Source: Patescibacteria group bacterium (GTDB lineage Bacteria; Patescibacteriota; Patescibacteriia; SBBC01; CAIJZX01). Taken from it: a stretch of DNA of 64,000 nt. Position numbers and translations under genes: made by a program. The stretch is taken from the NCBI GenBank assembly GCA_038065275.1, contig JBBTRH010000005.1, forward strand, positions 103,195 through 167,194, written 5' to 3'. The first letter of the stretch is position 1; each line of letters starts with the position of its first letter. Shown piece after piece: positions 26,070 through 44,273 of this stretch. The notes beneath the pieces were generated by a model. It saw only the letters and a program-made list of their open reading frames with translations. It did not search any database and was not told the origin of the DNA.

Positions 26070-26082
26070 GGCCGAGCATTAC

Positions 26083-26228: not shown

Positions 26229-26235
26229 ACCCGCC

Positions 26236-28397: not shown

Positions 28398-29942
28398 TCA
28401 CCGGCCGTTGGCGCAGGCCGTAGCGTAGGCCTGTTTGAACTCAGCCATATAATTCTTTGCGTTCGCCCGGATCTGCTCAACTTTTGATCGGTCTTTGAGG
28501 AACGTAGTTGAGCAGAAACTGTCTGATGCGCCGCCGAGACCCTGGTTGTACGCCGCGGCCGCCAGTAGAAGGTTCTTTTGGACGCAACTTTGATTAAGAA
28601 GTTGCTGGCCGTAGTAATCGGAGATCATCTGCACCTGGGCTTGCATCCCGGAAATTCCCGTACCCATTTTTCCGGCCGTTCGTTTATCCAGCCAGGCTTT
28701 GCACGACTGGCTGATATGCTTTCCGTCGCAATCATACACCTCTTCGTGGGTGCATGTAGCTGGATCGGTGACGGTGGCGGTCCGACATCCCGGAGGCAAC
28801 CCGCCTGGATTGACTTTTTTTAACACCTCAACTAAAGTCGAAACTTTAAATTGTCCGAGTCCATATCCCGGCCCGGGCTGACCGTTGTCGGTCTTCCCCT
28901 CCGGGCCGGAGAATGGTTGTCCCTGCGTCGTTTTCGGACTCTCAATGGCAATGATTGCCTTGATGGCAAAAGCATCGAGATCTTTGTCCTTGCGCGCTAC
29001 GTACTGGATCACTGCGTTCAGATCGATGCATCCATAGTCAACGGCGCCGTTCTCTCCAGCTCCCGCAGTCGGACCGCTACAAGCTTTACTCGGTTCACCG
29101 GCAACTAGTTTTTTCGTGCAACGCGGTAGTTCACCGACTGAGGTGAGTAAATTATTAAGGTAGCTGGCTAATTCCTTGTCAATATAGCTCAACCCAATGC
29201 CGCGGAAGCTGGTTAGTCGCGGATTGATGGTGTTCAGCAGGACGACGGATACTAGGGCGATCAGCACGCCGATGATGGCGTCGTTGATGATCCCGCGCGC
29301 GTCGTTAATCCGGCCCGGATTTCCCGCCGCCGCGACCCATTTGATCCCGCCGTAGACGACCATCACCGTCGCCAGGATCCCGACCGCCCAGACGAAAGCG
29401 ACGAAAATAACCCTGATGTACTCGGCGATGGTGGTGTCGGAAATGTTCCACACCCCCTCTAAAAGTCCGGGGATAGTCAACTCGGGCTTGAAGGTCAGCG
29501 CGTCGGACGCCGCCGAGGCGGCCGGCGGTGTGGTAGGCTGGGTCGTCGGCGCGGTGGCTGGACAGGTTCCGCCGATGGTAAAAAAATAGCCGGCGTTCCG
29601 ACGTTCGTCCGTTTCACATTGAGCGCGGCTGGCCGCAAAACAACTATACGACGGACTGTATGTGACGCAGCGTCCAGTTTCTCCTTGCCGCCGCCACTCA
29701 ACGCATGTTCCGGCGAAGAACTTCCCCGCCGCGTACACGTCAATTCCGCCCCAGGCCTGCTTACAGGCATCAAAGGTCAGATCAACGCAGTCCGGACTGC
29801 CGACGTAGCCCGGCGGATTCAGACAGGCGCCCGTGACGCTTTGGGCCTGCACCTCGCGCGGCGGACGGAATCCGCCGGCGGCGACGGACAGGCCCGCCGT
29901 CACGGCTAGGACCAAACAGACAACCCGCGGGTAACGTGGCAT
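28398..29942 (-). CDS. secreted fusion protein: Cys-rich N-domain, VirB2/TrbC-pilin-like hydrophobic hairpin (..AAGNPG..), C-terminal lytic transglycosylase (SLT) domain
   Basis: YIRVIFVAFVWAVGILATVMVVYGGIKWVAAAGNPGRINDARGIINDAIIGVLIALVSVVLLNTINP. SLT motifs IAIES, GLGQF, AAYNQG. Convergent with recG (2-nt gap). Confidence 0.5.
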   Translation of the reverse strand: MPRYPRVVCLVLAVTAGLSVAAGGFRPPREVQAQSVTGACLNPPGYVGSPDCVDLTFDACKQAWGGIDVYAAGKFFAGTCVEWRRQGETGRCVTYSPSYSCFAASRAQCETDERRNAGYFFTIGGTCPATAPTTQPTTPPAASAASDALTFKPELTIPGLLEGVWNISDTTIAEYIRVIFVAFVWAVGILATVMVVYGGIKWVAAAGNPGRINDARGIINDAIIGVLIALVSVVLLNTINPRLTSFRGIGLSYIDKELASYLNNLLTSVGELPRCTKKLVAGEPSKACSGPTAGAGENGAVDYGCIDLNAVIQYVARKDKDLDAFAIKAIIAIESPKTTQGQPFSGPEGKTDNGQPGPGYGLGQFKVSTLVEVLKKVNPGGLPPGCRTATVTDPATCTHEEVYDCDGKHISQSCKAWLDKRTAGKMGTGISGMQAQVQMISDYYGQQLLNQSCVQKNLLLAAAAYNQGLGGASDSFCSTTFLKDRSKVEQIRANAKNYMAEFKQAYATACANGR

Positions 29943-29945
29943 GCC

Positions 29946-31196
29946 TTAGCGCAGTTGAACGCGCTGAATTGTGCCGGTGGCGGCGTCGGTGAAGAACAAA
30001 CTGCTCTCGTCGGCGGCCACTCGCAGGTTGGCGGCGCTGAAACGCTGGTTCTTATTCTGGTCAACCGGCCGGGCGACCAGCCCGACCGTGCCGGTGCGGA
30101 GATCGACTCGATAAATGTTGTCCGGGATGCCCCGCGAGAGTTCCGGCTGGGGTCCCGAGCCGGGATTGTAATAGTACGGCACCGCGCAATAAACCGACGA
30201 CCCGCTCGAGGCGAAAGCGCACTTGTCGGCGCTGGTGTCGAGGCCGAGGTCGAGGGAGTTCGTCCCTAAGCTTTCCGGCGAGCCGTTCATCAGATACAGG
30301 TGCGGATTGTCGTTGGTCAGCGGACTGTAGGCGCTGTACAGCAGTTTGCGGCCGTCCGGCGACCAGGCGGGAGTGAACCCGCGACCGGCGACGTTGACCG
30401 AGGGAAAGTTCTCGTTGTTGGCGCCCAAGAAAATGATTTCCTGCTGGTCGCCGCTGGTCGACTTGGCGTAGCTGGCGATAATCTGGTTGTTCGGCGACCA
30501 GGCGACCGTCACTTTATCGGCGTTCCCGCCGAGATGCTCGGCCGTCTGCGACTGCGTGCCGTCCGGCTTGCTGACCACCAGCCACTGGTTTTCTTCATCG
30601 CGCGGGTCGAGGTACTTGGCGGCGATCTGGTCGGACTGCGGCGAGAACGAAAAGTTGTTCAATTCCGACGGCAGGGTGGTCTGCTTCTTGGCGGTGAAAT
30701 CGTAGAGGACTTTCGATCCGTCCGGAAAACCGAGAATGGCCTGGTTGCCGTTCGGCGCCCAGTCGACCGACCGGACATCGGGATAGGGGTCGGTCGTCAG
30801 CGGCGTTTTTGTCGACCCGTCCGGGCTGATCTTGTAGAACAATCCCGAGGCGCGGTCATAAAACTGGAGGTCGCCGTTGTCCGGGTTGACCGCCAGCCCC
30901 CCGGCCGGACCGGTCGTCACCGGACTGGCGAAGGTGGCGCCGCCGTTGGCCACATTGCTCGGTTCGGATATCGGCGCGTTCACGGCCGGCAGAGCGTTGA
31001 CGTTCCGCGCCGGCCGGACGCGGTTGGCGTTGCCATTCTGTGGGCTGGGCAGGCCGTTGGTGATGCCGCCGGGGCGGTTGGTGGTTACCGGCGTGCCGCC
31101 CGGCCGGAAAAAGACGTACCAAATCAGGAAAAAGAATCCAACCACAACCAGGGCGAAGGCGGTGATGAAGAGAGATTTTTTTAGGCGATCGTTCAT
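29946..31196 (-). CDS. TolB-like beta-propeller protein, N-terminal membrane anchor
   Basis: Repeated WAPNG/WSPDG propeller-blade motifs. Probable start MNDRLKKSLFITAF (ATG 31196). Confidence 0.55.
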   Translation of the reverse strand: MNDRLKKSLFITAFALVVVGFFFLIWYVFFRPGGTPVTTNRPGGITNGLPSPQNGNANRVRPARNVNALPAVNAPISEPSNVANGGATFASPVTTGPAGGLAVNPDNGDLQFYDRASGLFYKISPDGSTKTPLTTDPYPDVRSVDWAPNGNQAILGFPDGSKVLYDFTAKKQTTLPSELNNFSFSPQSDQIAAKYLDPRDEENQWLVVSKPDGTQSQTAEHLGGNADKVTVAWSPNNQIIASYAKSTSGDQQEIIFLGANNENFPSVNVAGRGFTPAWSPDGRKLLYSAYSPLTNDNPHLYLMNGSPESLGTNSLDLGLDTSADKCAFASSGSSVYCAVPYYYNPGSGPQPELSRGIPDNIYRVDLRTGTVGLVARPVDQNKNQRFSAANLRVAADESSLFFTDAATGTIQRVQLR

Positions 31197-31204
31197 TGGA
31201 GAAT

Positions 31205-32218
31205 TCAATAAATCTTCTCGTGCGGACAAGTTTTACCCGGACAGCAAATATTGGGTATAAAATCTATTCCAGTTTGGGACTTTTCCGGTTTGGTTTTCGG
31301 GCCAACCAGGTAGCACTGGGGGTCAACATTTTCACCTGCCGATATATAACTACCAGCACACCACGGCCAGACTCCATCACGAGCTGGTGCAATGACACCG
31401 CAGTATCCCCGTAGCTGAGCCACGAACCAAAAATTAGTAGCTTGACTAACTTCCCATGTTCCACCTTCTTCCTTGGCTAAGACGTCCGTACACCCTTGAT
31501 GCGGTTTATAGTTGTTTTTTGAATCCATCTTAAGGGAACAAATATTTGTGTGTTCAGCGAAACCCGCGGCACCGCCCCGCGAACATGTCGTGCCCATGCA
31601 ATAATCGTCAACTTCCTTATCTTTACCGTCAACCTTTACTTTTACCGTACCGATTTTTTTCACCTCACCGCAGGTTATTCTTGGTTCGCTGGGGCAGATT
31701 ACCAGGGCGCGGACACCTTCGAAGTATTTTACCGAAATGGACGTTAGCCCTGGGATAGCTAACTGCGTAAGTTTCGGGTTGATAATGTTCAACAGCACGA
31801 CCGACACCAAAGCGATCAGCACCCCGATGACCGCGTTGTCAATAATGTCTCGCGCCTCTTTGATCTGACCGGGATTGCCGGCGGCGGACACCCAACGTAT
31901 CCCGCCGTACATGACCATCACCACCGCCACGATGCCGACCACCCAGACGAAGTAGATGTAGATCGCCCGGATGTAACGCGTCAGCAGGGTGTCGTCGGCG
32001 TTCTGCTCGCCGGTGAATACGACCGGGATGGGAATTTCCGGCGTGAACTTTTCGGATTTATCCGCCGCGGCCGGTTCCGCCGCGGCCGCACTGGGTTTGC
32101 TTTGGGCTTGCACCTCGCGCGGCGAACGGAATCCGAAGATGGCGACGGACAGGCCTGCCAGCATGGTCAGAAACACCGCTAGAGTGATGGCCGCGTTTCT
32201 TACGTGCGGAGCAGTCAT
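31205..32218 (-). CDS. VirB2/TrbC-pilin-like protein, paralog of 28398..29942, with Cys-rich C-terminal domain
   Basis: YIRAIYIYFVWVVGIVAVVMVMYGGIRWVSAAGNPGQIKEARDIIDNAVIGVLIALVSVVLLNIINP. Its leader FRSPREVQAQS and a 45-bp stretch of DNA are near-identical to the paralog. Confidence 0.45.
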   Translation of the reverse strand: MTAPHVRNAAITLAVFLTMLAGLSVAIFGFRSPREVQAQSKPSAAAAEPAAADKSEKFTPEIPIPVVFTGEQNADDTLLTRYIRAIYIYFVWVVGIVAVVMVMYGGIRWVSAAGNPGQIKEARDIIDNAVIGVLIALVSVVLLNIINPKLTQLAIPGLTSISVKYFEGVRALVICPSEPRITCGEVKKIGTVKVKVDGKDKEVDDYCMGTTCSRGGAAGFAEHTNICSLKMDSKNNYKPHQGCTDVLAKEEGGTWEVSQATNFWFVAQLRGYCGVIAPARDGVWPWCAGSYISAGENVDPQCYLVGPKTKPEKSQTGIDFIPNICCPGKTCPHEKIY

Positions 32219-32273
32219 CCGAGGCAAGCGTTGATCATGACGGTAGATGGTGGGCATGGTCGGTACGAGAAGT

Positions 32274-34526
32274 TTACTGGCCGGTGAAGAAATTGACAAT
32301 AGCTCCGATCGTCTTCAGTCCGAGTTTAGCGGCTTCAACGGGATTGGCGATAAGCCAAAGAAAGACAAAAATGAAGCCGTAAATGACTCCGGTCCAGGCG
32401 GCGACAATCATGAATTTCATGTGCCGCACGTAGTCGATCGGGTCGCTGATGCTGTAGCCGGGGATGAGTTGGACCGATACGCTCGTGTCCGGTTGATTGG
32501 CGGCGCTGTCCGGAGGCGGACGGGCGGTGATTTCTTTCGTGAACATATTGCCCATCATGTTTCCGCCCATCCACCGCAGGAGGTAGAGGCCGACGACCAC
32601 CGGACCGGAGAAAAGAAACAGGTCGGTCATGGACAGGGCTTGATCCTCGGCCACTTCTTGAGCGATTTGCCAGCCCCGTTTGTAGATTTTTTCGAGTCGT
32701 TCTTTTTCCGACTCATACTGCACCGGAATCTGCTTCGCCTTCTGCCCCGCTTGGATCGCCTGCCGCTGGCGGGCGCGGTCGGCCGCTTCAAATTGCGCCC
32801 GCCGCTGGGCGGCGAGTTTCTGCGACCGGAGTTCCTGGGCCATCATCTCCGGTGATTGTCCTTCCGCGTCTCCGGCCGCCTCCGGCGCGGTAGTGTCTTG
32901 AAATTCCGACGACTCTTCGGCGCTCGGCGCGGTGCGCTCCGTCGGGGTGGCGGCCGGAGTCGGGGCCGGCGCGGTGAACGGTTGATATTCTTCATCGACT
33001 CCCTCGAGCCGGCCGCCGCCGACCATTTCAGGCGGTCGAGGTTGGTCAGTCGGCACCGGTTGTTGTGCAATTGGTGTCGGAACCTTGGCTTCCGCCGCTG
33101 GAGCTTCCGGACTTGGGGTTTGGACGGGAAGTGTACTGCTAACTGGCACTCCTTCGACCGTGGCTTCAAACTCGGGCGGCGCGGCCGGCACGCTCGGCCG
33201 GTAGGCTTGGTGGTCGGGGTGTGACGGCGGGGGCGCGGACGGCGGCGGTGACGTCGTCTGGGCCGGTTGGCCGATTTGATCTGCCGGTAATCCCGGCGGC
33301 CCGGATGGCGCAGGTTCAGCGCCGCCGGCTATCGGTTCGACGCGCCTGGGAGAAATTGCCGGGTGAACACCGGTCTGGGCGAAAGCGGGCGATGGGGTCT
33401 GGTCAACCGGAGTCGTAGCTGGCGCCGGCCCACTGCCTCGAGGCGTCGCCCGCCGCGGACGTCGTCCATAACGCGGTGACGCTGATGGTGTTGCCACTGG
33501 CTGGCCGGTGGTGGGCGTCGGTTCGGACACTCCCGTCGGAGTAGCGCCGGTTGGAGATGGCCCTCCCTCCTCCTCTCGCCCCTCGCGCCGTCGCCAAAGC
33601 GGCTTTGGCGCGTCGGCGACCTCGGGCAGGAGGGGTGTAATACCTCGCCCATCTTCTGGCGGGGGGGGTGTGATGCCTTGCCCCTTTTCTGGCGGGGGGA
33701 GCGTGACGGGTGACTGTGGTGTACTTTCTTGTATTCCTGGAACCAGTAGCACTGTAGCCGGAGCCGCGCCGGCCGTGTCGGCTGAGACGTCGATACTGGG
33801 AACCTCGGCATTGATTCCTGGCGGAGTTTCTCCGACATCGGGTATTGTCACCGTCGGCGGAATCGAGGGCGGTACCGGACTGACCGGCGGAACTTCACTG
33901 CGCGGTTGAACCGGCAGTGTTGGAGTCACCGCGGTTGGCCCGGCGGACGATGCGGCCGGCGGTCCAATCGGCGGTGTAGAAACTCGCGGCGGGATTGGCG
34001 GAGCTGACACTCGGGCCGCTGGCGGCGCAGTATCGGTCACCGGCGGCGTGACTAAACGCTCAACCGCTTCCACGGCTTCGAGATGCCGATCCATCAACCG
34101 GTGCTGTTCGTTGGCCGGCAGATGCAACGATCTCGTCAGGTCACTGCTGGGGATGACCGGATCGAGCGCGACGACGCTGTGGCCGCTTGGTTCAAGGCGG
34201 CCGCGGTACACCCGGCCATTGCGCTTGACGTAGATCGGCCGGCCGCTCGAGCGCGCGGCGGCCAGCAGGCGCGCCGTGGCGATGCCGGTGTCATTGACAA
34301 TCCGGCCGTCGTTATCGAGCGTCACAAAATAGCCGGACACGATGTCCGGTTCATCGCCCCGGCCGGGAGCGACGACCACGCCGATATCCGTCTCGCCGAT
34401 GGCCGGATTCGGCTCGTCAGGCGGCGCGGTGGCGGGCTTGTCAGTGCGCTTGCCGCGCACCGCGGCTGAATCGTTTACCGCGGAGTCGGTTGTTTGGTCG
34501 AGTTCATCATCGACAACGGTGGCCAT
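32274..34526 (-). CDS. proline-rich membrane protein (750 aa), C-terminal TM helices; possible VirB10-like scaffold
   Basis: Long P/T/A-rich low-complexity region, then a coiled coil and three C-terminal TM segments. Confidence 0.4.
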   Translation of the reverse strand: MATVVDDELDQTTDSAVNDSAAVRGKRTDKPATAPPDEPNPAIGETDIGVVVAPGRGDEPDIVSGYFVTLDNDGRIVNDTGIATARLLAAARSSGRPIYVKRNGRVYRGRLEPSGHSVVALDPVIPSSDLTRSLHLPANEQHRLMDRHLEAVEAVERLVTPPVTDTAPPAARVSAPPIPPRVSTPPIGPPAASSAGPTAVTPTLPVQPRSEVPPVSPVPPSIPPTVTIPDVGETPPGINAEVPSIDVSADTAGAAPATVLLVPGIQESTPQSPVTLPPPEKGQGITPPPPEDGRGITPLLPEVADAPKPLWRRREGREEEGGPSPTGATPTGVSEPTPTTGQPVATPSASPRYGRRPRRATPRGSGPAPATTPVDQTPSPAFAQTGVHPAISPRRVEPIAGGAEPAPSGPPGLPADQIGQPAQTTSPPPSAPPPSHPDHQAYRPSVPAAPPEFEATVEGVPVSSTLPVQTPSPEAPAAEAKVPTPIAQQPVPTDQPRPPEMVGGGRLEGVDEEYQPFTAPAPTPAATPTERTAPSAEESSEFQDTTAPEAAGDAEGQSPEMMAQELRSQKLAAQRRAQFEAADRARQRQAIQAGQKAKQIPVQYESEKERLEKIYKRGWQIAQEVAEDQALSMTDLFLFSGPVVVGLYLLRWMGGNMMGNMFTKEITARPPPDSAANQPDTSVSVQLIPGYSISDPIDYVRHMKFMIVAAWTGVIYGFIFVFLWLIANPVEAAKLGLKTIGAIVNFFTGQ

Positions 34527-34535
34527 AGGAAACCC

Positions 34536-35093
34536 CTATTTCCACACCGCCGCGCTGACTTTCCAATCGGCCCCAACTTTGACCAGGTCTATTAATAAGT
34601 CTTTGGTTTGGACGGTCGCGGCCGTCCCGACCGTGACCGTTTGCTGGGTGGCCACGACCACCGACGCGGCCGCGGTTGTTTGCTTCAGCACGTTGAACAC
34701 CAGCGCCCGGGTGACGGTGCCGTGGTACTCCTTCGGCGGCGGGGCTGATCGCGCCTGGGCTATCTGCGCGCCGAGGAAATCGCCGTAGGCGGCGGTGGCG
34801 TACGCTTGGGCGTCAGTCAGATTGCGACCGCCGTTCTGATTCGATCCACTGCCGTACCGTTCGGTGAAGTTCCGCGCCACGTAGATTATGGCTTGACGAT
34901 CCGGGGTATAGGGCGAGCGGTTGGCGTTGGCGGGCGCGTCGGTCGGGCGATTGGTGACCGGCGGCGCGGTATTAGTCACCCGGTAGACGGCGTTCTGGAG
35001 ACGCGGGCTCCGGGTGACGCTGAGGATGATAACCAGGGCCAGGCCGATCATGACGACCAGGGCCGAGGCGAAAAAGATGATCCGGCGTCCCAT
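34536..35093 (-). CDS. bitopic membrane protein, hypothetical (VirB8-position)
   Basis: 185 aa. N-terminal TM. Sits directly downstream of the VirB4 genes. Confidence 0.35.
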   Translation of the reverse strand: MGRRIIFFASALVVMIGLALVIILSVTRSPRLQNAVYRVTNTAPPVTNRPTDAPANANRSPYTPDRQAIIYVARNFTERYGSGSNQNGGRNLTDAQAYATAAYGDFLGAQIAQARSAPPPKEYHGTVTRALVFNVLKQTTAAASVVVATQQTVTVGTAATVQTKDLLIDLVKVGADWKVSAAVWK

Positions 35094-35096
35094 CGG

Positions 35097-37025
35097 TTAG
35101 GCGTTTAACGGCGGAGCTGAGTCCATCACCGTCCCGGCGCCGGTGGCGACGCCGGCGCTGGCCGACTGCTCGAACTCCTTCTTCGCCGCTTCGATCTCGA
35201 GCAGCTGCTGCGGGTTGGTCGTCACGATCTGGTCCTCGGCAATCGAGGCCACGATTTTGATGGCGGCGTGCTTGCTGCCGGCGAAGAAAATCCCCTCCCC
35301 CAGGCCGGATTCGAGGAGCAAGTAGCGTTCCTGTTGGGTCAGGAGGAAAGTCTTGGTGACGATGTCGATGGCGGCCGGCGACTGTTTCATCAGCAGGGTC
35401 AAGGCCGAGTTGTTGATGATCGCCTGGCCGTAGGGGCTGAGCAAAAAGTCGTTGACGTCCTGGGTAATCGTGGTCACGCCGAGGTAGTACTTGCGCGAAC
35501 GTTTGACCAGGCCGTAGACGAACTTGGCCGAGTCTTCGTGCTGCATCAGCCACCAGGCTTCGTCAATCACCAGGATGCGGCGTTTCAAACTTGACCGGGC
35601 CAGGTTCCAGATGTAGGAGATGATGATTGACATGCCGATCGGCCTCAGCTCGTCCTCGAGGTCGCGGACGGAGAAGACCACCAATTGGTTGTTCAGCTCG
35701 ATGTTGGTCGGGCTGTTGAACAAGCCGGAGAAGGTGCCCTCGGTGTACTTCTTCAGCCGTTCCACCAGGCTGTCCGCGCCGGTCATGCCGCTCAAGACTT
35801 CCTGGAAATCAGCCATCACCGGCGTTTCGACGTTGGCCAGGTCGGCCTCGGGAGTGATGTCTTTCTTGGCGTATGTTTCCAGCAGGGCGCGATCAACGAT
35901 TGAATCTTCTTCATGGGTCAAGGCGCCGAGCATCAGGCGAAACATCGACTTGAGCGTGATGACCGCCGAGCGGATGATGTCGGCCGTCGTTTCGTCGCTA
36001 CTAATCGCCCGCGGCAAGTCGAAGGGGTTGATTTTGCTCTCAGCGTTGAGCGAGACATTGATGTAGGTGCCGCCGACCGCGTCGGACAGATACTTGTATT
36101 CGTGCTCCGGGTCGATGACGATGATGTCGGTGCCGAACATCATCGCCCGGATGATTTCCAGCTTGACGGCGTACGACTTGCCCGAACCGGCGGTGGCAAA
36201 AACGGTGTAGTTCGGGTTCTGCAAGCTGAAGCGGTCAAACAGGATCAGCGAGTTGTTATGCCGGTTGATGCCGTAGAGAATGCCGCTGTCCGAGGACAGG
36301 TCGGCGGAGATGAAGGGGAAGCTCGAAGCGATCGGCGAAGAGTTCATGTTGAACGTCACCTGGAGCTGGTCCACCCCGACCGGCAGAGTTGAGGCGAATC
36401 CTTGTTCGGTCTGGAAAAAGGCGCGCTTGGAAAACACCAGTCGCGAACCGAACAGCCCTTCGATCCGGCCGGTCAGGTTCTTCAGCTCCTCCACGGAATC
36501 GGCGTAGAGCGTGACGTACAGGGCGAACTGGAAGAATTTTTCCGTCCCTTGGGTCAGGTCGTCGCGTAGCTTCTCGATGTCCCGCAGGGCAGTCTCGCGC
36601 ATCGGGTCGCGCGGGGCGCCTTTTTCGCTGTCGGTAATCAACTGGGCTTCGAGGGCGCCGACTTTGTTCTTCAGCTGTTTCAGGATGATGTCCGACGGCA
36701 CCGGATAGAAGAACATGGCGATGTCCAGCGGGGTGTTGTAGTTGATGATCGGCGCAAACCAGCCGACGGAAATGTAGCGCGGGTAGGTGACCACAAACAG
36801 CGTCTGCAGGTATTTGCCGTTCAAACGGAGGAACGTCGGATCAACCTTCATCGCCGCCGGCGCGATCAAGTCGCGGACGGTGACCACGCCCTGGCGGTAA
36901 ACGCGCTCCGCGGTAATCAGTTCGCGCTCGTCCGACGGGCGGCTGACAGTCGGAGTCGGCGGCGGAGCGCCGGCCGCCTGATCGCGGAGGATGTCCGGTC
37001 GGGAGAGGTTAACGTTGGTGGGCAT
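35097..37025 (-). CDS. VirB4/TrbE-family T4SS ATPase, C-terminal ATPase portion
   Basis: Walker A FATAGSGKS. Walker B ILVIDEAWWL. 642 aa. Confidence 0.75.
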   Translation of the reverse strand: MPTNVNLSRPDILRDQAAGAPPPTPTVSRPSDERELITAERVYRQGVVTVRDLIAPAAMKVDPTFLRLNGKYLQTLFVVTYPRYISVGWFAPIINYNTPLDIAMFFYPVPSDIILKQLKNKVGALEAQLITDSEKGAPRDPMRETALRDIEKLRDDLTQGTEKFFQFALYVTLYADSVEELKNLTGRIEGLFGSRLVFSKRAFFQTEQGFASTLPVGVDQLQVTFNMNSSPIASSFPFISADLSSDSGILYGINRHNNSLILFDRFSLQNPNYTVFATAGSGKSYAVKLEIIRAMMFGTDIIVIDPEHEYKYLSDAVGGTYINVSLNAESKINPFDLPRAISSDETTADIIRSAVITLKSMFRLMLGALTHEEDSIVDRALLETYAKKDITPEADLANVETPVMADFQEVLSGMTGADSLVERLKKYTEGTFSGLFNSPTNIELNNQLVVFSVRDLEDELRPIGMSIIISYIWNLARSSLKRRILVIDEAWWLMQHEDSAKFVYGLVKRSRKYYLGVTTITQDVNDFLLSPYGQAIINNSALTLLMKQSPAAIDIVTKTFLLTQQERYLLLESGLGEGIFFAGSKHAAIKIVASIAEDQIVTTNPQQLLEIEAAKKEFEQSASAGVATGAGTVMDSAPPLNA

Positions 37026-37740
37026 GGTCGTCTTTGATGCTGGAAGTCTCTTCGAGGGTAATCTTGGCGGCGGGTTGGAGCGGCTGGGCGCGCGAGGTTT
37101 CCGGATTATAGGTGTTGTAGTACAGCTCGATCAGGTCCTGGGTGCGGAGGAACAACGATTTCAAGCCGGCCGAGCTGAGCGCGTTGGCGACGTTGTCGAC
37201 CCGCTTGAAGAGCTCGGTGCGGTACTGTTCGAACTGCTTCTGCTTGAGGTGGATGGTGGCCGTCGGCCGGAAGGTGTCAAACAGGCGGGTGAAGAACTTG
37301 CCGGGCCGGTCGACTTTCGGCGTGTAGGGCACCACTACGTAGAACCGCTTGGTCATGATGTCCGAGCCGGCCACTAAGTCGCTGACGAATTGCCGATAGT
37401 CGCGGATTTGCAACTGCAGGAGTTCGTTGGTCTGTTGTTTTTCCGTCGTCTTGAGGGTGGCCAGGTAGCTGTCGATGTTCAATCGCCGCGACTGGATGAC
37501 GATTTGGAGCGGGTAATCAATGGTGTTGAGGAAGGAGGTGTAAGCGGCGATCACCGCGTCTTGCTCTTCGTCCGACTTGAGCATGAAGTTGATCGAGGCC
37601 ACCAGCATCACCGCCACCACGCTCCCGTTCCGGAGGATGACCGTGTCATCGCGGATCTCCAGGATGTCCAGGTACTGCTGGGTCGAGGGGGTGGTTTTTT
37701 GGCGGCGGGGCTTGACCGCGGATGGGCGTGGCGGAGGCAT
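37009..37740 (-). CDS. VirB4-family N-terminal domain as a separate ORF overlapping the ATPase ORF by 17 nt
   Basis: DILEIRDDTVILRNGSVVAVMLVASINFMLKSDEEQDAVIAAYTSFLN resembles Gram-positive VirB4 (TraE/PrgJ-type) N-termini. Confidence 0.5.
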   Translation of the reverse strand: MPPPRPSAVKPRRQKTTPSTQQYLDILEIRDDTVILRNGSVVAVMLVASINFMLKSDEEQDAVIAAYTSFLNTIDYPLQIVIQSRRLNIDSYLATLKTTEKQQTNELLQLQIRDYRQFVSDLVAGSDIMTKRFYVVVPYTPKVDRPGKFFTRLFDTFRPTATIHLKQKQFEQYRTELFKRVDNVANALSSAGLKSLFLRTQDLIELYYNTYNPETSRAQPLQPAAKITLEETSSIKDDHAHQR

Positions 37741-37745
37741 TGTGG

Positions 37746-38237
37746 TTACGATTTTGCCGGTCGTGATGGATTCGGGAGATCGGTTCCCCAGAACGACGAT
37801 TCCTCTTCGTCCTCATGGAAGGCGCCGCCGGTATCGACCAGCAGGGCCAGTTTGGCTAAGGTGGTCTCCGCCAGCGGCTGTTTGGTCGGCCACGGCGGCG
37901 GAGGCGGCGGTTCACGGCGGTATTGGAGCCGTTCATTCACCATGTTGTTCCATAATCGCATCCGCGGGTTCTTGACCGACTGGAGCAGGCTGAGCACAAA
38001 AACATGGAACGGCCGGCCGTTGATCCGGACGAAGGCGAACAAAATGATGCCGATGAAAATGCCGACGGCGGTGAAGACAAAAGCTACCGTCAGGTTGGCC
38101 AATTTGAACAGGATCTGGTAAGCGCCAACAATCAGTCCGCCGCCGACCAAAAAAATGATGAATTGCCGGACGCTGATCGGACCGAGGATCTTGTCCTCGA
38201 CGTCGATGAATTGCGGGACTATAAACTGGTTGGCCAT
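37746..38237 (-). CDS. PrgI/TcpE-like (VirB3-analog) small membrane protein
   Basis: MANQFIVPQFIDVEDKILGPISVRQFIIFLVGGGLIVG.. Two TM helices. Sits immediately upstream of VirB4. Confidence 0.5.
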   Translation of the reverse strand: MANQFIVPQFIDVEDKILGPISVRQFIIFLVGGGLIVGAYQILFKLANLTVAFVFTAVGIFIGIILFAFVRINGRPFHVFVLSLLQSVKNPRMRLWNNMVNERLQYRREPPPPPPWPTKQPLAETTLAKLALLVDTGGAFHEDEEESSFWGTDLPNPSRPAKS

Positions 38238-38414: not shown

Positions 38415-38420
38415 CATTGG

Positions 38421-39920
38421 CTAGACCTGAAGTTGGCGGTTAAGATCGGCGACCACGGTGAATTCGTGTTCGGATAGATAGGGCTGGCCGCGGCGGCCGC
38501 GGTCAGCGATAATCTGCGAAATGGGTTGGCCTAGTTCCAGGCTGTCCCGCCCCATGGACACGTACAGCTGGAAGACGTCGCTCTGCCGCCAACCGGCGAC
38601 CGCTTCCACCCAGACGGTGAATGACTCGCGCTGGAAGTGCTGGAACTTGTCAAGCAACTTGCGCGCCACCTCGGTCGCGCCCTGTCCCAGGCGTCGGAAC
38701 TCCAGCAAGGTCAGACTCCGCATTTCCTCGCCCGGACCAAGGGCCAGGGTCGGACGGACCACGTCGGCCACGGTCGGACGGTCGGTCAGGCGCGCCCCCG
38801 TCATCACGGTCGCGGCCGGGCGAGCGGGCGGCGGCGCCGGCCGGGGGATCGTCGTGGGCGTCGTCGCGGGCGACGGAATATCGGCCGGACGAATAATCGG
38901 GCGGCTCGGCCGCGGCGGTTCGGTCACGTTCGGCGGGATAACCGGCGCCGCCAACGGCGCGTCGCGGCGTAGCGGCGGCAACGGGGGCGGCGGCGCCTGG
39001 ACGACTGACGGGACGACCGGCGGGCGGGGCGGTTGAGGCGTCGCGGGCGTCTGGACCATGCCGCGCGATTTCAATTCGCCGGCGGAACGCTCCGCCGCCG
39101 CCGCGACCTGAGCGGCGATATCCGGGTCCAGGCCGAGTCCGCCGACTTTCGGATCGCGGGTCAGCAGGTCGGCCGTGGCCCCCGTCTGGCGGATATTTTT
39201 CAGGCGGGCCTTAATAATTGATACCGCGCGGCGACTCAGGAGTTCGTCGGCGAAAGCTAGGTTCTGCGCGGTCAGAATCGTCCGGGCCAGGCTGTCGAAA
39301 TCCTGGTTCGGATTAACGGTCGTCAAGGTCCGCAACTTCGCCGCCTGACGTTCGATTTCCGCCGCGTCATCATCGGAGTACTGGGTGATCGGCGCCTGAC
39401 TGCCGACCGGCGCAGCCGGGGTCAGCCAGGGAGCGGTCGGCGGTCTGATCGCGGCGACCGCCGGCGCGGTCTTTGGCGGTGGCCCGGGCGGCGCCGGCGG
39501 TCGGCTCGGAGCGCTCTCCGCCACCGGCAGATTCACCGGCGGGGCTGATCGCGGTGCGGGGGATACCGGCTGACGACCGGCCGGTGGAGCGGACGGCGGT
39601 TGAGAGGCGGGTTTCAAACCCGCCTCTTCGCCCCGGGCCAGCCCAAGATAATCCGCAATGTCGCCGACGAAGACTTCCTGCCGCAACCGCCGGGAAACCT
39701 CTTCGGCCGCCGGCCGATCGAGCGAGCATTCGGCCTGCAGTTTGGCCGACAGCTCACCGACCGGAAACTCGTGCACCACGACCCGCATGATCAGGTTCGC
39801 CAAATCGACCCCCGGGTACCGCTGTTCAAGGTCATCAACGGTGGCGATGGCTGACGGGGTCGCGACGCCGTCCCGAATCGCTTTCGGCAAGCTATGGAAT
39901 TGTTGCCAGATATCGACCAT
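38421..39920 (-). CDS. hypothetical protein (499 aa, central Pro-rich linker)
   Basis: First gene after structured-repeat copy 2 and the TGCTATAAT promoter. Confidence 0.5.
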   Translation of the reverse strand: MVDIWQQFHSLPKAIRDGVATPSAIATVDDLEQRYPGVDLANLIMRVVVHEFPVGELSAKLQAECSLDRPAAEEVSRRLRQEVFVGDIADYLGLARGEEAGLKPASQPPSAPPAGRQPVSPAPRSAPPVNLPVAESAPSRPPAPPGPPPKTAPAVAAIRPPTAPWLTPAAPVGSQAPITQYSDDDAAEIERQAAKLRTLTTVNPNQDFDSLARTILTAQNLAFADELLSRRAVSIIKARLKNIRQTGATADLLTRDPKVGGLGLDPDIAAQVAAAAERSAGELKSRGMVQTPATPQPPRPPVVPSVVQAPPPPLPPLRRDAPLAAPVIPPNVTEPPRPSRPIIRPADIPSPATTPTTIPRPAPPPARPAATVMTGARLTDRPTVADVVRPTLALGPGEEMRSLTLLEFRRLGQGATEVARKLLDKFQHFQRESFTVWVEAVAGWRQSDVFQLYVSMGRDSLELGQPISQIIADRGRRGQPYLSEHEFTVVADLNRQLQV

Positions 39921-39941
39921 TTAGTCTGTGTTTGAGGCGTT

Positions 39942-39950
39942 TATTATAGC
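39942..39950 (-). promoter_or_regulatory. extended -10 TGCTATAAT (minus strand) 21 nt upstream of the ATG at 39920
   Basis: Minus-strand GATTTGTGCTATAATAAACGCC. Confidence 0.45.
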
Positions 39951-40024
39951 ACAAATCGAGGGCCGTCGCAAAACTCCGCTTTAGCCGGCAACAGTGCCTT
40001 CGGGCCTCCAACCAATGATAGGAT

Positions 40025-40145
40025 GTGATTGATGTTGGTTACTGCTATCACTTTCCCCTCGGCTTCGCCGTATCCCCCTTCTGAATTCAGAAGGGGGACG
40101 CCAGGGGGAAGTGGCAATCTCCCCCAGCATTTCCAGCTCCGCTTC
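40025..40145. repeat. 110-bp structured repeat, copy 2
   Basis: See copy 1 (8335..8455). Same nested palindromes, including the central EcoRI-site palindrome. Confidence 0.8.
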
Positions 40146-40200
40146 CGTGTTGTTGATCGCCTGGCCTACGAACTCGGTGCGGGCGCTTTTTTGTCCGGTA

Positions 40201-40494
40201 TTAGCTCAGAGCTACGTACAATCGATCGGCTTCGGCTTGGACCGTCGGACCGTCATACTCGCCGCTGTGCTTATGAAACCCCTGGTAGGAGGGTTGTTTC
40301 TGATCGAGATGGAGGTTGAGACGGAGCTGGTCGCCCTGGTCCTCGAGGTAGAGGTGGAAGCGCGGGTAGAAGTGCGTCCCCAGCCGCCGCAAGTAGGAAC
40401 GCTCGCCGCTCCGCGGGTCGCGGAACGGAAAGTACCCGACGCGGCGGAGAACGACGTCGGACTGATAGGCCGGGCGCGGGACGCGGATGATCAC
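40201..40494 (-). CDS. small His-rich hypothetical protein
   Basis: 97 aa. ATGA overlap with the upstream gene suggests translational coupling. Confidence 0.35.
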   Translation of the reverse strand: MIIRVPRPAYQSDVVLRRVGYFPFRDPRSGERSYLRRLGTHFYPRFHLYLEDQGDQLRLNLHLDQKQPSYQGFHKHSGEYDGPTVQAEADRLYVALS

Positions 40495-41186
40495 GCCGCC
40501 CCCAGTTTCAGCACCACGTTCTTCAACCGCCGTTTGATGGCCGCCACTTCCAGCGGGTTGAGATCCTTAGTGTTGACGGCGTAGCTGAGGGCGTCGAGGC
40601 TGTGGAGCAGTTCCTCCCCCGCGGCTTCGTCAAGGCGCTGGGCTTTGACCGCCTCCTCGATTTGCTGCGACAGCGCCGTCAAACGCAGTAACACTTCGGC
40701 CCGGCCTTTAGTCGAGGTTAAACGTTCTTCAATCTGGCGCAGGATCGAGGGTTCTTCGCCCGTGTCTTTAGCCGCGGCCGGCTCCTTAGCCGGCGCCGTT
40801 TCCGTTTTTGCCTGGGGCGCGTAAACTTCCGGATAATTTTTCTTAGCCTCGGCGACGTATTTTTCCAAGTTGCCGCCAAGTTCTTTGATCAGCCCCTCGA
40901 CGTTGCCGACGTACCACTGCATCGGCAGGAACTTCCGGCCGAGCAAGTCGAGGGCCATTCCTTTGGCCTTGGTCTCGTCAAGCCCAAGGTCCTTCTTGAT
41001 CGTCGCCACCAGTTCGGCCGGAGTGATGGTCTTAAAGATGACCTTGCGAATGACCTTGACAAAGACGCCGATCTGCTTGCTGTTGATGCCGTACTTCTTC
41101 CCGATCTCCATGTTGATATCAACCGACACATCCTCGGCCAGGATGTCCTTCAACAGATCAGGAAGATTGGTAAAGAGATTGGCCAT
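40491..41186 (-). CDS. hypothetical protein
   Basis: 231 aa, no recognisable motifs. Confidence 0.45.
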   Translation of the reverse strand: MANLFTNLPDLLKDILAEDVSVDINMEIGKKYGINSKQIGVFVKVIRKVIFKTITPAELVATIKKDLGLDETKAKGMALDLLGRKFLPMQWYVGNVEGLIKELGGNLEKYVAEAKKNYPEVYAPQAKTETAPAKEPAAAKDTGEEPSILRQIEERLTSTKGRAEVLLRLTALSQQIEEAVKAQRLDEAAGEELLHSLDALSYAVNTKDLNPLEVAAIKRRLKNVVLKLGAA

Positions 41187-41189
41187 ATT

Positions 41190-44100
41190 TTATGGTGGAT
41201 CGGTGCGGGTGGAAAACGGTGAGAGTTCTTCCTTCCACCGTGCCCGATCGGATTTCTGCTTCATCATGACGTCGTTTGGTCCTGGCATTCCTGCATTAAC
41301 ACGTCCATAAGCATCATCCCAGGCTTTGACGACTTTTTCGGTAATGCCTTCTCTGATGCTATCAGCCAGTTTGGTCAATCCAGGTACTGAAACATGAGTC
41401 TGGAGTTCGTTTATAACCGTATCCCGAGCTGCATCGCTTGAGTATGCACCGACAGTGTGGTCTCCTTCGTCATAATTGTAGAACTTATACTTTCCGCCGT
41501 CGACACGGATTGCCGTCCGGAACTGAGATGTCGCCTGAGGCTGTATGACTGGGATGAAGCCAGTGGACATGGTCTCTAAAGCATTGTGCCGTACACCAGC
41601 ATCATCATCGAAGTACCCGCCACGAGCGGACACGCCGAGCCCGCGCTGCATGAGTATGTACTGCCGTCCACCGATGGTTGACCGATCGAAGCTGGCCTTC
41701 GCACCTCCAGTAATGACCCCTCCCGGTCCCATAATGCCCGTTCGATCGTGGATGGCCATTGCCGCCGCTGAAACTGGATCTTTCATCGTCTGGAAGGTGC
41801 TACCGACCGCGCGGTTGTAGACGGCGGCCACCTGCAGGTCCTTGGTCATCTTCTCGATCGAATCCTGGTCGAAGCCGGCGGTCTTGTGGAGGAGGAGTTC
41901 GATATCCACGTCACCGATGGTTGAGAGCGACAGTTTGCCGCCTTCGGCGTTCTCCACGATCTTGGCGGCATTGGCTTCGCGGTACTGTTCTGCTTGGGGA
42001 GCCTCGTAATCCGTCATGAACTGGCGGCGAGCGGCATCATATTGGATCCGCCCGGTGGCCGGGTCTCGTCGGTAGGTGTGGTAGGCCTCGCCGAGGAACC
42101 CTTCGTCAGCCAGCCAGCGCTTCTGTTCGCTGTTGATCTCGTCGTGGTCGAAGTAGGCACCGTCGCCGATAGCTTTGCGAGTCTGACGGTCGAGCGGGCT
42201 GAGCCAGCCGTTCAACTGTTTTTGACTCTTGGCCCGTTTGGTTAATTCTTTAAACAGGTAATTGGACCCCATTTGTTGTGCCGAGCGTCGATCGGTATCA
42301 TTTGTTGGATCAAGCGCGCGTCCATCGATCCCTCTAGTCGTGCTGATCTGATGTTTATAAAGCTGGTTGCTGAGCTGACCGAGGATTTCCGGCGTAAATC
42401 CTTCGAGCGACACCTCGCCGCGCTCGATGTCGTCAGCCAGGCGTTGCGCGTCAGACAATCCGTTTTGCCAGTTGCGATAGACCGATGACAATAGCAGGGC
42501 TGGATTATTCTTAGCCAACATACTCTTGAGCTTGCGATACTGTTCCGGGACGTTGCCGACGCTTCTGACGGCTAGGTCGGTTATCGTTCGTCCGTTGGCG
42601 TCATCTTGAACTTGATTATTCTCGAGCAACTGCCGAGCCGCGGCGCTGCGCTGGCCGCCATTCATGTTTTGATTGAGCGCCATCGCTTCAAGTTCGGCCT
42701 TTGAACGGCCGGCCGTGTCGAATTCTTTGGCTGTGGCGGCTTGCTGTCGGGCTTTCGTCTCGGCGATTCTTCCTTGGGCTTGTCGGTAACCGCGCGTGCC
42801 TTCCGCTAATCCGCTTCTGGCCGCTTGGCCGGCTTTTTCCAGCGCTTCCTGGGGAGTTTGTTTACCTCGGATGACTTTCCAGGCTCCCCGCGCGCCGGCA
42901 CCCATGGCACTTGTTACGGCGGCTCGTCCGCGGCCGATCTGTCCGATAGTTTTATTCGTCACCTGATCGGCGCGCATACCCAACGCCGCCGTCCGTTCGG
43001 CGACCGCTTCCTGTCGCCGTCTAGTTCGTTCTTTAAAGTACCCCTGCACCGGCGCCAGCGTCCGATCCCGAATCGCGTTCAGTCCGGTCAGCGTCGCGCC
43101 GACCCCGAAGCCGGTCGTCGCCACCTTGCCGGCGAAGCTGGCGCCGACCGCGCCGGATTTCTGGGCGTACTGCAGGCCCATCAGCAGGAAAATGATGCCG
43201 ACGATGAAGGTCATCAGCCGGTCGATGCTCAACAGCTCGCTCATGAAATCGCTACGCAGGTCTACGGTGTCGGTTTTGGCCTGGTCCATGGCGGTGTTGA
43301 CCGTCGGGTCGAAACGGAGCGGGTTTTTATCGCAATTCCCGTTACTGGGACAGCTGGTACTGCCGACCAGGGCCAGGGAGATCCACAGGAAAAAAGCCAG
43401 CACCGGCCCCAGGACGGCGTACTTGGTGAACTCGCTCCACCACTGGCTGGCGTATTTCTCGGTGTTCGGCAGGATGCGCAGGGCGTAGGCGATCGGCGAC
43501 AGGATGATCAACAGCCACAGGGCGATAATCCGGACGAAGAGCATGATCGTAATGGCCAGCATCACGACGAAAGCCACGATCATCATCGCCAGGCCGGCCA
43601 GCAAGGTGATAAAAATGCTCATGTTGGAGCCGGCCGAGCGGCTGTAAGTTTGACCGAAGTTGATCACCGCGTCGAGCCCGAACATGTGCGAAAAGTTGCC
43701 GAAGGCCACGTCGCGGAAGGCGTTGACGAAGGTGATCATCACCACCTGCGCGAATTGGAGGAGGAAGACGGCGATGAACTTGGAGAAATTGACCAGGAAG
43801 GCCATGATGATCAGTTTCCCGAGCAGGCGGTTGTAGCGGTAATTCTGCAGGCGCAGGACGGTGCCGGCCGAGATGATCAGCAGGGCGATGATAAACACCA
43901 TGTTCATCAGGTCGCGGACGATCGGCCAGCCGGATTTGACCACCGGCGCGTCGAGAAAGGTGTTGTAGCGGGCGACGACGACCAGGAGCGAAATGAAGAC
44001 GCCGGTCAGCGAAGCGAACATTTTCGTCATGGCCATGACGATATTGTTCAGGAGAAGAAAAATGGTGTTGCCGACGACGTCGACGACCACATTGGCGTGC

Positions 44101-44273
44101 GCTACCGGCCCGATGATCGCGCCGGCCAGGACGATCAGGCCGATGATGATGAGCGCGCGGCGTTGACCCAGTACCACTTTGGTCGAATTATGGATATTTC
44201 CCCAAAAGCTCATTTTAGAACCAATAGCATTTCTTAATAAGAACCGTATTTTAGCCAAAGTGGTGCTGGACAT
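41190..44273 (-). CDS. VirB6/TrbL-like polytopic membrane protein with large C-terminal soluble domain
   Basis: About seven N-terminal TM helices followed by a roughly 700-aa hydrophilic region. 4-nt gap to the upstream giant gene. Confidence 0.45.
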   Translation of the reverse strand: MSSTTLAKIRFLLRNAIGSKMSFWGNIHNSTKVVLGQRRALIIIGLIVLAGAIIGPVAHANVVVDVVGNTIFLLLNNIVMAMTKMFASLTGVFISLLVVVARYNTFLDAPVVKSGWPIVRDLMNMVFIIALLIISAGTVLRLQNYRYNRLLGKLIIMAFLVNFSKFIAVFLLQFAQVVMITFVNAFRDVAFGNFSHMFGLDAVINFGQTYSRSAGSNMSIFITLLAGLAMMIVAFVVMLAITIMLFVRIIALWLLIILSPIAYALRILPNTEKYASQWWSEFTKYAVLGPVLAFFLWISLALVGSTSCPSNGNCDKNPLRFDPTVNTAMDQAKTDTVDLRSDFMSELLSIDRLMTFIVGIIFLLMGLQYAQKSGAVGASFAGKVATTGFGVGATLTGLNAIRDRTLAPVQGYFKERTRRRQEAVAERTAALGMRADQVTNKTIGQIGRGRAAVTSAMGAGARGAWKVIRGKQTPQEALEKAGQAARSGLAEGTRGYRQAQGRIAETKARQQAATAKEFDTAGRSKAELEAMALNQNMNGGQRSAAARQLLENNQVQDDANGRTITDLAVRSVGNVPEQYRKLKSMLAKNNPALLLSSVYRNWQNGLSDAQRLADDIERGEVSLEGFTPEILGQLSNQLYKHQISTTRGIDGRALDPTNDTDRRSAQQMGSNYLFKELTKRAKSQKQLNGWLSPLDRQTRKAIGDGAYFDHDEINSEQKRWLADEGFLGEAYHTYRRDPATGRIQYDAARRQFMTDYEAPQAEQYREANAAKIVENAEGGKLSLSTIGDVDIELLLHKTAGFDQDSIEKMTKDLQVAAVYNRAVGSTFQTMKDPVSAAAMAIHDRTGIMGPGGVITGGAKASFDRSTIGGRQYILMQRGLGVSARGGYFDDDAGVRHNALETMSTGFIPVIQPQATSQFRTAIRVDGGKYKFYNYDEGDHTVGAYSSDAARDTVINELQTHVSVPGLTKLADSIREGITEKVVKAWDDAYGRVNAGMPGPNDVMMKQKSDRARWKEELSPFSTRTDPP

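Follow-up and report, generated by a model that had tools for sequence, protein, structure and literature searches.

We analysed a 64,000-nucleotide stretch of the genome of a Patescibacteria group bacterium (contig JBBTRH010000005.1, positions 103,195 to 167,194; hereafter the window), in which a train of co-oriented minus-strand genes, running from about 63985 down to 28398, encodes a type IV secretion system (T4SS) module. The locus is very probably the version found in the class ABY1 (Kerfeldbacteria type) of the chromosomal T4SS that occurs across Patescibacteria and descends from the conjugation machinery of monoderm bacteria, MPF_FATA. An earlier note on this DNA had treated the system as unusual; the module is real, but its kind has already been described (Quiñonero-Coronel et al. 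2025, PMC12102498) and it is not a new system. Hidden Markov model (HMM) scans with Pfam and NCBIfam were run on every sizeable open reading frame (ORF) in the window. All core components which the note had named were found in place on the minus strand (Table 1), and the genes of the TrsD-like protein, PrgI/VirB3, VirB6 and the PF18895 proteins are on the virB4 strand, none of them more than 9 kb from virB4. The description of the set as a minimal Gram-positive-type channel is borne out, as it is MPF_FATA-like, with CD1110 as the best NCBIfam model and with both PrgI and TrsD present. The reported absence of a relaxase and of a VirD4 coupling protein also stands: no type IV coupling protein (T4CP), relaxase or integrase family was matched in any sizeable ORF of the window, and no VirB7, VirB9 or VirB10 homologue was found there.

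The published survey sets the frame for this identification. VirB4 is present in 2,417 of 3,035 Patescibacteria genomes and most copies form one clade inside MPF_FATA; TrsD, PrgI, VirB6 and PF18895 pilins are found near virB4; VirB8 matches come almost only from ABY1; and the ABY1 loci are linked to comF, recG and radA, with KsgA also frequent near virB4 (PMC12102498). The survey reports that no adhesins were detected, and giant proteins, pilin–hydrolase fusions and the protein we call p499 are not mentioned in it (PMC12102498); these three are the only points in which our analysis goes beyond it. A conserved block of KsgA, a TSP3 protein and giant proteins upstream of virB6, and a pilin hairpin fused to swappable wall hydrolases, appear to be absent from the survey.

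The VirB4 protein scores 359.5 bits against NF045971 conju_CD1110 (cut-off 325; profile positions 178-730 of 752), also matches the TraG P-loop, AAA_10 and DUF87 domains, and has intact Walker A (GSGKS) and Walker B (ILVIDEAW) motifs, while about 180 N-terminal profile positions are missing from its 642 amino acids. The TrsD-like protein encoded directly upstream matches TIGR00929 at positions 3-178, CD1110 at 21-119 and the TrsD model at 21-142 (E 5e-7), and carries a precomputed PF26593 TraC-like match. It supplies the missing N-terminus, and with HMM matches for both the ATPase part and the upstream part, ‘split VirB4’, the term used in the earlier note, is a fair description. The split is an old TrsD-type arrangement; a recent frameshift as its origin was rejected because the split is present in 81/81 relatives, in some of them with an intergenic gap. 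Among the best 120 VirB4 homologues (72-100% identical), every one whose source is named is from Patescibacteria, and so are the best 80 genome loci wherever the label is credible (67-100% identity when taken together with the 120 proteins). A protein identical to this VirB4 is annotated as from a Patescibacteria group bacterium, and short contigs that duplicate the region come from Hainich groundwater assemblies. The nearest named relatives belong to Candidatus Kerfeldbacteria, followed by Falkowbacteria and Komeilibacteria (67-91% identity). The best plasmid-borne VirB4s, from Bacillota and Actinomycetota, are 28-35% identical.

Concerning the membrane components, the PrgI/VirB3-like and VirB6-like calls are both confirmed by Pfam matches above cut-off. 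VirB6 has seven hydrophobic segments within residues 40-365, followed by a hydrophilic C-terminal domain of about 660 residues without cysteine; its only two cysteines lie in the loop between the sixth and seventh segments, and in relatives the protein also stands upstream of p499. For p185, a seven-sequence AlphaFold (AF2) model (pLDDT 61, about 72 in the domain) consists of three helices on a four-stranded sheet, and Foldseek relates it to NTF2-like folds, including the VirB8 homologues CagV (6iqt), TcpC (3ub1) and PrgL (7aed) and an IcmL-like protein (E 3e-3 to 8e-3). A 57%-identical homologue carries a precomputed match to the VirB8 model PF04335; p185 itself is not matched by this model, 2/41 orthologues are (E 0.02), and the orthologue in locus L078 matches SnoaL_4. 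We classify p185, with moderate confidence, as a predicted VirB8-like protein. PDB sequence searches with the p185 profile, the SLT-like domain described below and VirB6 returned nothing useful.

The confident model of p499 (pLDDT 78) gave no fold match in the PDB by Foldseek; the protein has one cysteine and no transmembrane (TM) segment and is probably cytoplasmic, as p231 probably is. A likeness between p231 and the N-terminal part of p499, seen by eye, is not claimed (BLASTP E 0.34). In the Pro-rich protein, one hydrophobic segment was detected at residues 705-723 and a second was seen by eye near 660-680; its counterpart in L007 has only 181 amino acids against 750 here. The long proline-rich, cysteine-free N-terminal region is a lineage-specific expansion. 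VirB4, TrsD, PrgI, p185, p97, p231 and the Pro-rich protein contain no cysteine, and cysteine makes up 3.3-4.8% of the giant and pilin-domain proteins, except for G3 (1.4%). Read as a guide to location, this partition suggests a cytoplasmic position for the 660-residue domain of VirB6, for p499, p231 and p97 and for most of the Pro-rich protein, and it agrees with the finding that 30 relatives have DsbA inside the locus.

The two pilin-domain proteins both match PF18895 above its cut-off and both contain a signal-like segment and two TM segments. Protein 2 consists of the signal-like segment, the T4SS_pilin TM hairpin and a Cys-rich C-terminal domain; protein 1 has a Cys-rich N-terminal domain, the hairpin, and a diverged SLT domain with a Cys-containing insertion. 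The VirB2-pilin-like call thus stands as regards the family, but not the size: with 364 and 514 amino acids they are not VirB2 proteins of about 100 residues. All 55 of the 55 pilin-domain ORFs of ABY1 loci are likewise large (208-1006 amino acids, with 76-494 residues after the hairpin), and neither protein of the window has the size of a small polymerising subunit of the VirB2/TrbC kind, of about 100 residues. From this layout, the ABY1 ‘pilin’ hairpin would resemble less a classical pilus subunit of that size than an anchor which holds displayed domains at the membrane. The SLT domain does not reach the Pfam threshold (13.1 bits, E 0.07; cut-off 21.3). In hhalign, a profile built from this domain and its four closest homologues aligns with the SLT domains of positional orthologues (65-75 bits in those) at 97.2% probability and E 3e-11, with the catalytic E-S, GLxQ and AYNxG motifs in register. 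We therefore accept the C-terminus as a probable diverged SLT lytic transglycosylase with a VirB1-like function. The terminal gene of the train always carries the PF18895 hairpin, whereas its C-terminal enzyme varies between genomes: SLT in L010, L023, L024, L026 and L035, and Peptidase_M23 in L007 and L012. A separate case is L014 (Kerfeldbacteria, CAVSWO010000002), where the terminal pilin protein (L014:15421-18450) has 1010 amino acids and combines a beta-helix, Big_7, T4SS_pilin and SLT; the first two of these domains are those of the separate giant G2 of the window. Evidently, domain modules are exchanged between the giants and the proteins with a pilin anchor. The TolB-like propeller mentioned in the earlier note is present between the two pilin-domain genes, a position which is conserved in relatives.

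The upstream part of the train encodes four large secreted proteins (G1-G4), all with N-terminal hydrophobic segments. The earlier note called all four Cys-rich; this holds for three (3.5-4.8%) but not for G3, which has only 1.4%. In many loci, L007 and L010 among them, the gene immediately upstream of VirB6 encodes a G1 homologue, and G4 is conserved after the TSP3 protein in 10 metagenome loci. The true start of G4 is probably near 60532, because the protein is called with 1894 amino acids in a near-identical strain. The order KsgA–TSP3–giant is seen in 8 metagenome loci, and the giants are a conserved part of the locus and not chance neighbours, since the order KsgA–TSP3–giant(s)–VirB6–...–VirB4 recurs. 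In four metagenome loci (L096, L100, L102 and L103), G4-like and G1-like sequences are fused in single ORFs of 2558-3948 amino acids between the TSP3 protein and VirB6.

The comparison with related genomes was made by BLASTP on 80 species-level genome loci and 2 from complete or long contigs (82 in total), from Kerfeld-, Falkow- and Komeilibacteria, with VirB4s 67-91% identical; 13 further metagenome loci were found with G1 as the query. The common order is [giant]–VirB6–(p231, p97)–p499–PrgI–TrsD–VirB4–p185–(Pro-rich)–pilin–propeller–pilin/hydrolase, usually with a convergent RecG at the end, and the metagenome loci begin with KsgA, the TSP3 repeat protein and the giant(s). Among loci with enough flank, TrsD is conserved in 81/81, PrgI in 77/77, p499 in 75/75, p185 in 62/76 and RecG in 35/41; for VirB6 (40/63) and G1 (26/59), which are divergent, the counts at E 1e-6 are minimum values. 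Identities in the nearest relatives are 90% for VirB4, 83-85% for TrsD and 73-80% for PrgI, against 40% for G1, 44-50% for p185, 41% for the pilin and 65% for RecG. We also clustered the non-matching ORFs of at least 200 amino acids within 10 kb of virB4 in the 82 loci and scanned representatives of the ten commonest clusters against Pfam. The recurrent neighbours include RadA (47 loci), DsbA (30), PPDK fragments, SAM synthetase, AdoHcyase and PfkB; one SnoaL-like cluster is a distant form of p185, two clusters have no Pfam match, and no T4CP or relaxase is among these ten families. Many metagenome-assembled genome records with the locus (L013, L016, L017 and others) are titled ‘uncultured Gammaproteobacteria bacterium’, and L066 ‘Nanoarchaeota archaeon’; to judge by gene content and VirB4 identity, which point to Patescibacteria, these titles are mislabelled.

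The locus is vertically inherited and is not a mobile element, because the gene order is kept in 82 genome and 13 metagenome loci and the module lies between the housekeeping genes KsgA and RecG. The GC content is about 0.55-0.64 inside the module and outside alike, without a step at the boundaries; the marks of a mobile element (an integrase, atypical composition, variable insertion sites) were not found, and the KsgA...RecG frame recurs in relatives. On the grounds of even composition, housekeeping frame and conserved synteny, the reading of the locus as an integrated integrative and conjugative element was rejected.

Most gene junctions are gaps of up to about 10 nt or short overlaps, so that the earlier description of one tightly packed operon is right as to orientation and mostly as to packing, but not for two gaps of 280 and 183 nt. 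The first (39921-40200, after p97 and before p499) contains a perfect 26-bp palindrome at 40073-40098 (TCCCCCTTCTGAA/TTCAGAAGGGGGA) and the best promoter-like site of the region, sigma-70-like with an upstream TG (extended -10): TTGCGA-17-TATAAT at 39971-39943 (-). L011 and L091 have hairpins at the same position with a different sequence and the same CCCC(T)C...G(A)GGGG arms, which suggests that the palindrome may form a conserved RNA hairpin or mark a transcript boundary or processing site. The second gap (38238-38420) lies before PrgI and also breaks the train. The 280-nt gap with its palindrome and promoter-like site makes it probable that the locus is transcribed as two units or more. Terminator-like sites were not enriched over shuffled sequence. 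Between p499 and PrgI there is a 42-aa ORF (38243-38371, -) without conservation, similar to the C-terminal end of a GIY-YIG protein; it was rejected as a small T4SS subunit for these reasons and may be the remnant of an inserted GIY-YIG gene.

Table 1. Features of the T4SS locus and its flanks, listed in the direction of transcription of the gene train (aa, amino acids)
Feature	Position in window	Strand	Description
KsgA rRNA dimethyltransferase	61504..62319	-	Conserved housekeeping gene; upstream boundary
TSP3-repeat (thrombospondin type 3, Ca-binding) membrane protein	60537..61361	-	First gene of the conserved block after KsgA
Giant secreted protein G4	54848..60631	-	ORF 1927 aa; 4.2% Cys; CBM_4_9
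Giant secreted protein G3	51145..54843	-	1232 aa; 1.4% Cys; Big_7 and BNR/Ycf48-like propeller; conserved in L091 and L093
Secreted beta-helix protein G2	48974..51148	-	724 aa; 3.5% Cys; variable member, absent at this position in L091
Giant secreted protein G1	44278..48969	-	1563 aa; 4.8% Cys; N-terminal fn3; 4 nt upstream of virB6
Extended VirB6/TrbL-like protein	41190..44273	-	1027 aa; PF04610, 29.1 bits (cut-off 25.9)
Conserved protein p231	40491..41186	-	No family match; no Cys
Small conserved protein p97	40201..40494	-	No family match; 45-75% identical in Kerfeldbacteria-like loci
Intergenic control region before p499	39943..40098	-	26-bp palindrome, then promoter-like site
Conserved protein p499	38421..39920	-	Three all-alpha domains (1-95, 180-290, 390-499); Pro-rich disordered linkers
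PrgI/VirB3-like membrane protein	37746..38237	-	163 aa; 2 TM segments; PF12666, 40.6 bits (cut-off 27)
TrsD-like protein, equivalent to VirB4 N-terminal domain	37009..37740	-	243 aa; directly upstream of virB4, 17-nt overlap
VirB4-type ATPase, CD1110 family	35097..37025	-	642 aa; PF19044, 2e-28; NF045971 conju_CD1110
VirB8-like candidate p185	34536..35093	-	N-terminal TM helix, linker, NTF2-like domain; starts 3 nt after the virB4 end
Pro-rich protein	32274..34526	-	750 aa; 15.7% Pro; 0 Cys; C-terminal hydrophobic region as anchor
Pilin-domain protein 2	31205..32299	-	364 aa; PF18895, 38.0 bits (cut-off 26.6); weak NF045849 (Mbov_0395 pilin-like) match
Membrane-anchored beta-propeller (PD40/TolB-like)	29946..31229	-	Weak PD40/TolB match; between the two pilin-domain genes
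Pilin-domain protein 1	28398..29942	-	514 aa; PF18895, 34.2 bits (cut-off 26.6)
RecG helicase	26068..28395	+	Housekeeping; downstream boundary; convergent with last T4SS gene, 2-nt spacing
ComF-family protein	23244..23969	+	TIGR00201 full length, E 4e-23, 82 bits, below curated cut-off of 233; 4.4 kb from module

The flank on the KsgA side also contains Sua5 and an MFS transporter. On the RecG side there are three tRNAs (the only hits of an Rfam scan), ComF, a Clp ATPase and a type IV pilus operon; the last of these and ComF had been pointed out as neighbours, and both are present in the window. The listed RecG ORF starts inside or upstream of a tRNA-Arg gene (26083-26159), so that about the first 55 codons are translated tRNA gene, and the true start is probably near the Met at 26233. 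Two small GIY-YIG nuclease-domain genes flank comF at 22797-23099 (+) and 24085-24360 (+). The type IV pilus operon (295-16786, -) encodes PilC, a PilT-like protein, a response regulator, PilB and PilM; a secretin is lacking, as is to be expected in a monoderm. Next to the operon are the genes of four large unannotated proteins with no Pfam match (1590, 433, 551 and 342 amino acids).

Based on these components, we propose that VirB4/TrsD, PrgI, VirB6 and the VirB8-like protein would form an ATP-driven channel across a single membrane, and that the hydrolase, tethered to the membrane by its pilin-like hairpin, would open the cell wall locally. The giants, the propeller and the Cys-rich ectodomains of the pilin-domain proteins may contact the surface of the host cell; such a role is suggested by their fast divergence (40-50% identity where VirB4 has 90%), as for host-specific parts. 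The Cys-free proteins (p499, p231, p97, the VirB6 C-terminal domain and the Pro-rich protein) would be located in the cytoplasm and may replace the coupling protein. The machine would serve a host-dependent lifestyle, in which macromolecules are moved between epibiont and host and no plasmid is transferred. Several considerations weigh against this picture: VirB4 was assigned to the Patescibacteria clade by its best hits; VirD4 homologues are present in most Patescibacteria genomes, usually far from virB4 (PMC12102498); the VirB8-like call for p185 comes from a moderate-confidence model, and the NTF2 fold is common to many unrelated families; the assignment of proteins to the cytoplasm or the exterior by Cys content is a heuristic; and essentiality of the system is known for S. 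epibionticum only (PMC10633639), the ABY1 organisms being uncultivated.

As to what is moved and in which direction, we lean, tentatively, to an import of host nucleic acid over an export of effectors. In the former case the T4SS would run inward, as H. pylori ComB and archaeal Ced do, taking up DNA or RNA from the host or the environment, which RadA, RecG and ComF would process; such a role has precedents and has been proposed (PMC11665869, PMC12102498), and a 2026 preprint describes uptake of host RNA in a cultivated relative, together with tubular structures that may, it suggests, be T4SS pili (10.64898/2026.06.21.733656). Gene linkage points the same way: radA is found at the locus in 48/82 relatives, and in 47 of these 48 the T4SS train ends with it in the same orientation; comF stands after the VirB8-like gene, co-oriented with it, in 8 of the 11 relatives of this kind; recG is convergent in 45/48; and in the window both comF and recG lie less than 5 kb from the module, with no T4CP or relaxase in the 64 kb. 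However, all of this linkage comes from a single class, whose tiny genomes may simply have inherited the synteny; the 64-kb window has no radA; and VirB4 matches the DNA-import model CedB only weakly (37.7 bits, cut-off 700). In S. epibionticum, moreover, loss of comEC abolishes transformation and leaves growth unharmed, so that ComEC-dependent competence is dispensable (PMC12857230) and the essential role of the T4SS there is not classical competence (PMC12857230, PMC10633639). That essentiality was found by Wang et al. 2023 with transposon sequencing (Tn-seq), in which the homologous cluster (S. epibionticum ML1 SEML1_0006-0019) was required for epibiotic growth of the saccharibacterium (PMC10633639); since coupling and relaxase proteins are lacking, the same authors suggest protein export or an alternative role (PMC10633639). 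Reviews propose either effector delivery or uptake of host molecules (PMC11665869, PMC12857230), the former being speculative (PMC11665869), and effector systems without a T4CP are known (Ptl and Brucella VirB; PMC12857230). The export of proteins into or onto the host cell, where they would manipulate or permeabilise it, could use the Cys-free p499, p231 and p97 as substrates or adaptors, but we consider it rather doubtful: no recognisable effector, toxin or immunity gene is found in the locus, the uncharacterised proteins belong to the strongly conserved core (75/75), whereas effectors are typically variable, and the giants have Sec-type N-termini and need no T4SS. The earlier suggestion of a DNA-uptake or cell-contact apparatus therefore fares unequally; contact fits the conserved giants and the published essentiality for epibiotic growth, whereas for uptake the evidence is gene linkage only.

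A structure for attachment alone, that is, a pilus-like or fibrous surface organelle which adheres to the host and translocates nothing, is unlikely. The locus does encode two proteins of the pilin family, adhesin-type domains (fn3, Big_7, beta-helix, CBM, TSP3) occur in its four large secreted proteins, DsbA lies inside it in 30 relatives, and the surface parts diverge fast; yet the size of the ABY1 pilin-domain proteins fits anchors better than polymerising pilins, the separate type IV pilus operon already gives adhesion, and a channel of VirB4, VirB6 and VirB8 exceeds what a pilus needs. Least probable, and by our estimate very improbable, is functional conjugation or export of chromosomal DNA with a coupling protein and a relaxase encoded elsewhere in the genome. 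VirB4 belongs to the conjugative CD1110 family above the NCBI cut-off, T4CP genes are often distant from virB4 in Patescibacteria (PMC12102498), and the negative result for relaxase and T4CP is limited to the 64-kb window. Against this stand the window without T4CP, relaxase or integrase, the lack of a T4CP or relaxase among the recurrent neighbours of the 82 relatives, the presence of relaxases in only 103/3,035 Patescibacteria genomes (PMC12102498), and the position of the locus, fixed between KsgA and RecG, tracking species divergence and showing no step in composition. The statement in the earlier note that the system does not serve plasmid transfer is thus supported by gene content, housekeeping flanks, even GC and conserved gene order. 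A bolder form of the import reading, which we hold to be on the doubtful side, is that the ABY1 T4SS is an inward feeding and DNA-acquisition machine: giants and pilin-anchored hydrolases would attach to the host envelope and breach it, VirB4/VirB6 would pull in nucleic acid of the host, co-transcribed RadA with ComF and RecG would process it, and the hairpin would be an anchor displaying swappable enzymes.

Patescibacteria account for a large part of the diversity of bacteria and are unable to synthesise nucleotides, amino acids or lipids themselves. Their T4SS is the leading candidate for the machine that takes material from hosts, and it is essential in the one species tested. The locus in the window adds nothing to this principle but gives a clean ABY1 example, and the conclusion of the earlier note agrees with published opinion, with DNA uptake as a reasonable, unproven lead. 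Three further leads arise: the conserved block of giant proteins may be the missing adhesins; the pilin-like hairpin may be an anchor for exchangeable wall hydrolases; and two widely conserved core proteins, the VirB8-like p185 (62/76) and p499 (75/75), have so far been unannotated.

Among known systems, the closest is the T4SS of the Patescibacteria clade itself, with which the locus shares a chromosomal location, an MPF_FATA VirB4 with an adjacent TrsD-like protein, PrgI/VirB3 and VirB6, an array of PF18895 VirB2-like genes interrupted by a non-pilin gene, a cell-wall hydrolase, the lack of a nearby relaxase or T4CP, the ABY1 linkage to comF and recG, and a nearby KsgA. It differs from the saccharibacterial locus, which has six tandem pilins, in its two pilin-domain proteins (364 and 514 amino acids), one of which carries the hydrolase, and from other ABY1 loci, which commonly have radA, in lacking that gene. 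The conjugative T4SSs of monoderm MPF_FATA (the CD1110 type of CTn2, TrsD/TrsE of pGO1, PrgH-PrgL of pCF10) share the CD1110 VirB4 family, the TrsD-like split, PrgI, VirB6, an NTF2/VirB8-like protein, a VirB1-type hydrolase and the absence of an outer-membrane core. In contrast to these, the locus has no relaxase, T4CP, oriT or integrase and does not belong to a mobile element, it encodes proteins of the pilin family and the secreted giants instead of a PrgB-type adhesin, and its VirB4 is only 28-35% identical to the best plasmid copies.

The best of the plasmid-borne VirB4 matches (35% identity) is found on a megaplasmid of Pontibacillus sp. ALD_SL1 (NZ_CP062975, 351-361 kb; L104), within a cluster whose core genes are in the same order: two Mbov_0395-family pilin-like genes, a VirB6-like gene, a small protein, a TrsD-like protein (29%, E 6e-32), VirB4 and an M23 hydrolase of 1050 amino acids. 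No T4CP or relaxase is annotated within 15 kb of it in the PLSDB gene table, which is incomplete, and the plasmid is typed as non-mobilizable. This Bacillota cluster differs in the size of its pilin-like proteins (145-151 amino acids) and has no giant block, p499, propeller or RecG/KsgA frame; the presence of pilin-like genes in an MPF_FATA-type cluster of Bacillota is relevant to the question whether the pilins of Patescibacteria were co-opted from diderm systems. Finally, H. pylori ComB and Ced of Sulfolobales also combine a VirB4-type ATPase and membrane parts without a relaxase or coupling protein, and are the precedent for inward transport. ComB differs in having a diderm core of VirB7, VirB9 and VirB10, of which no homologue was found in the window, and in handing the DNA to ComEC. 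For Ced, the CedB and CedD models give only weak matches, CedD with 18.5 bits against a cut-off of 600.

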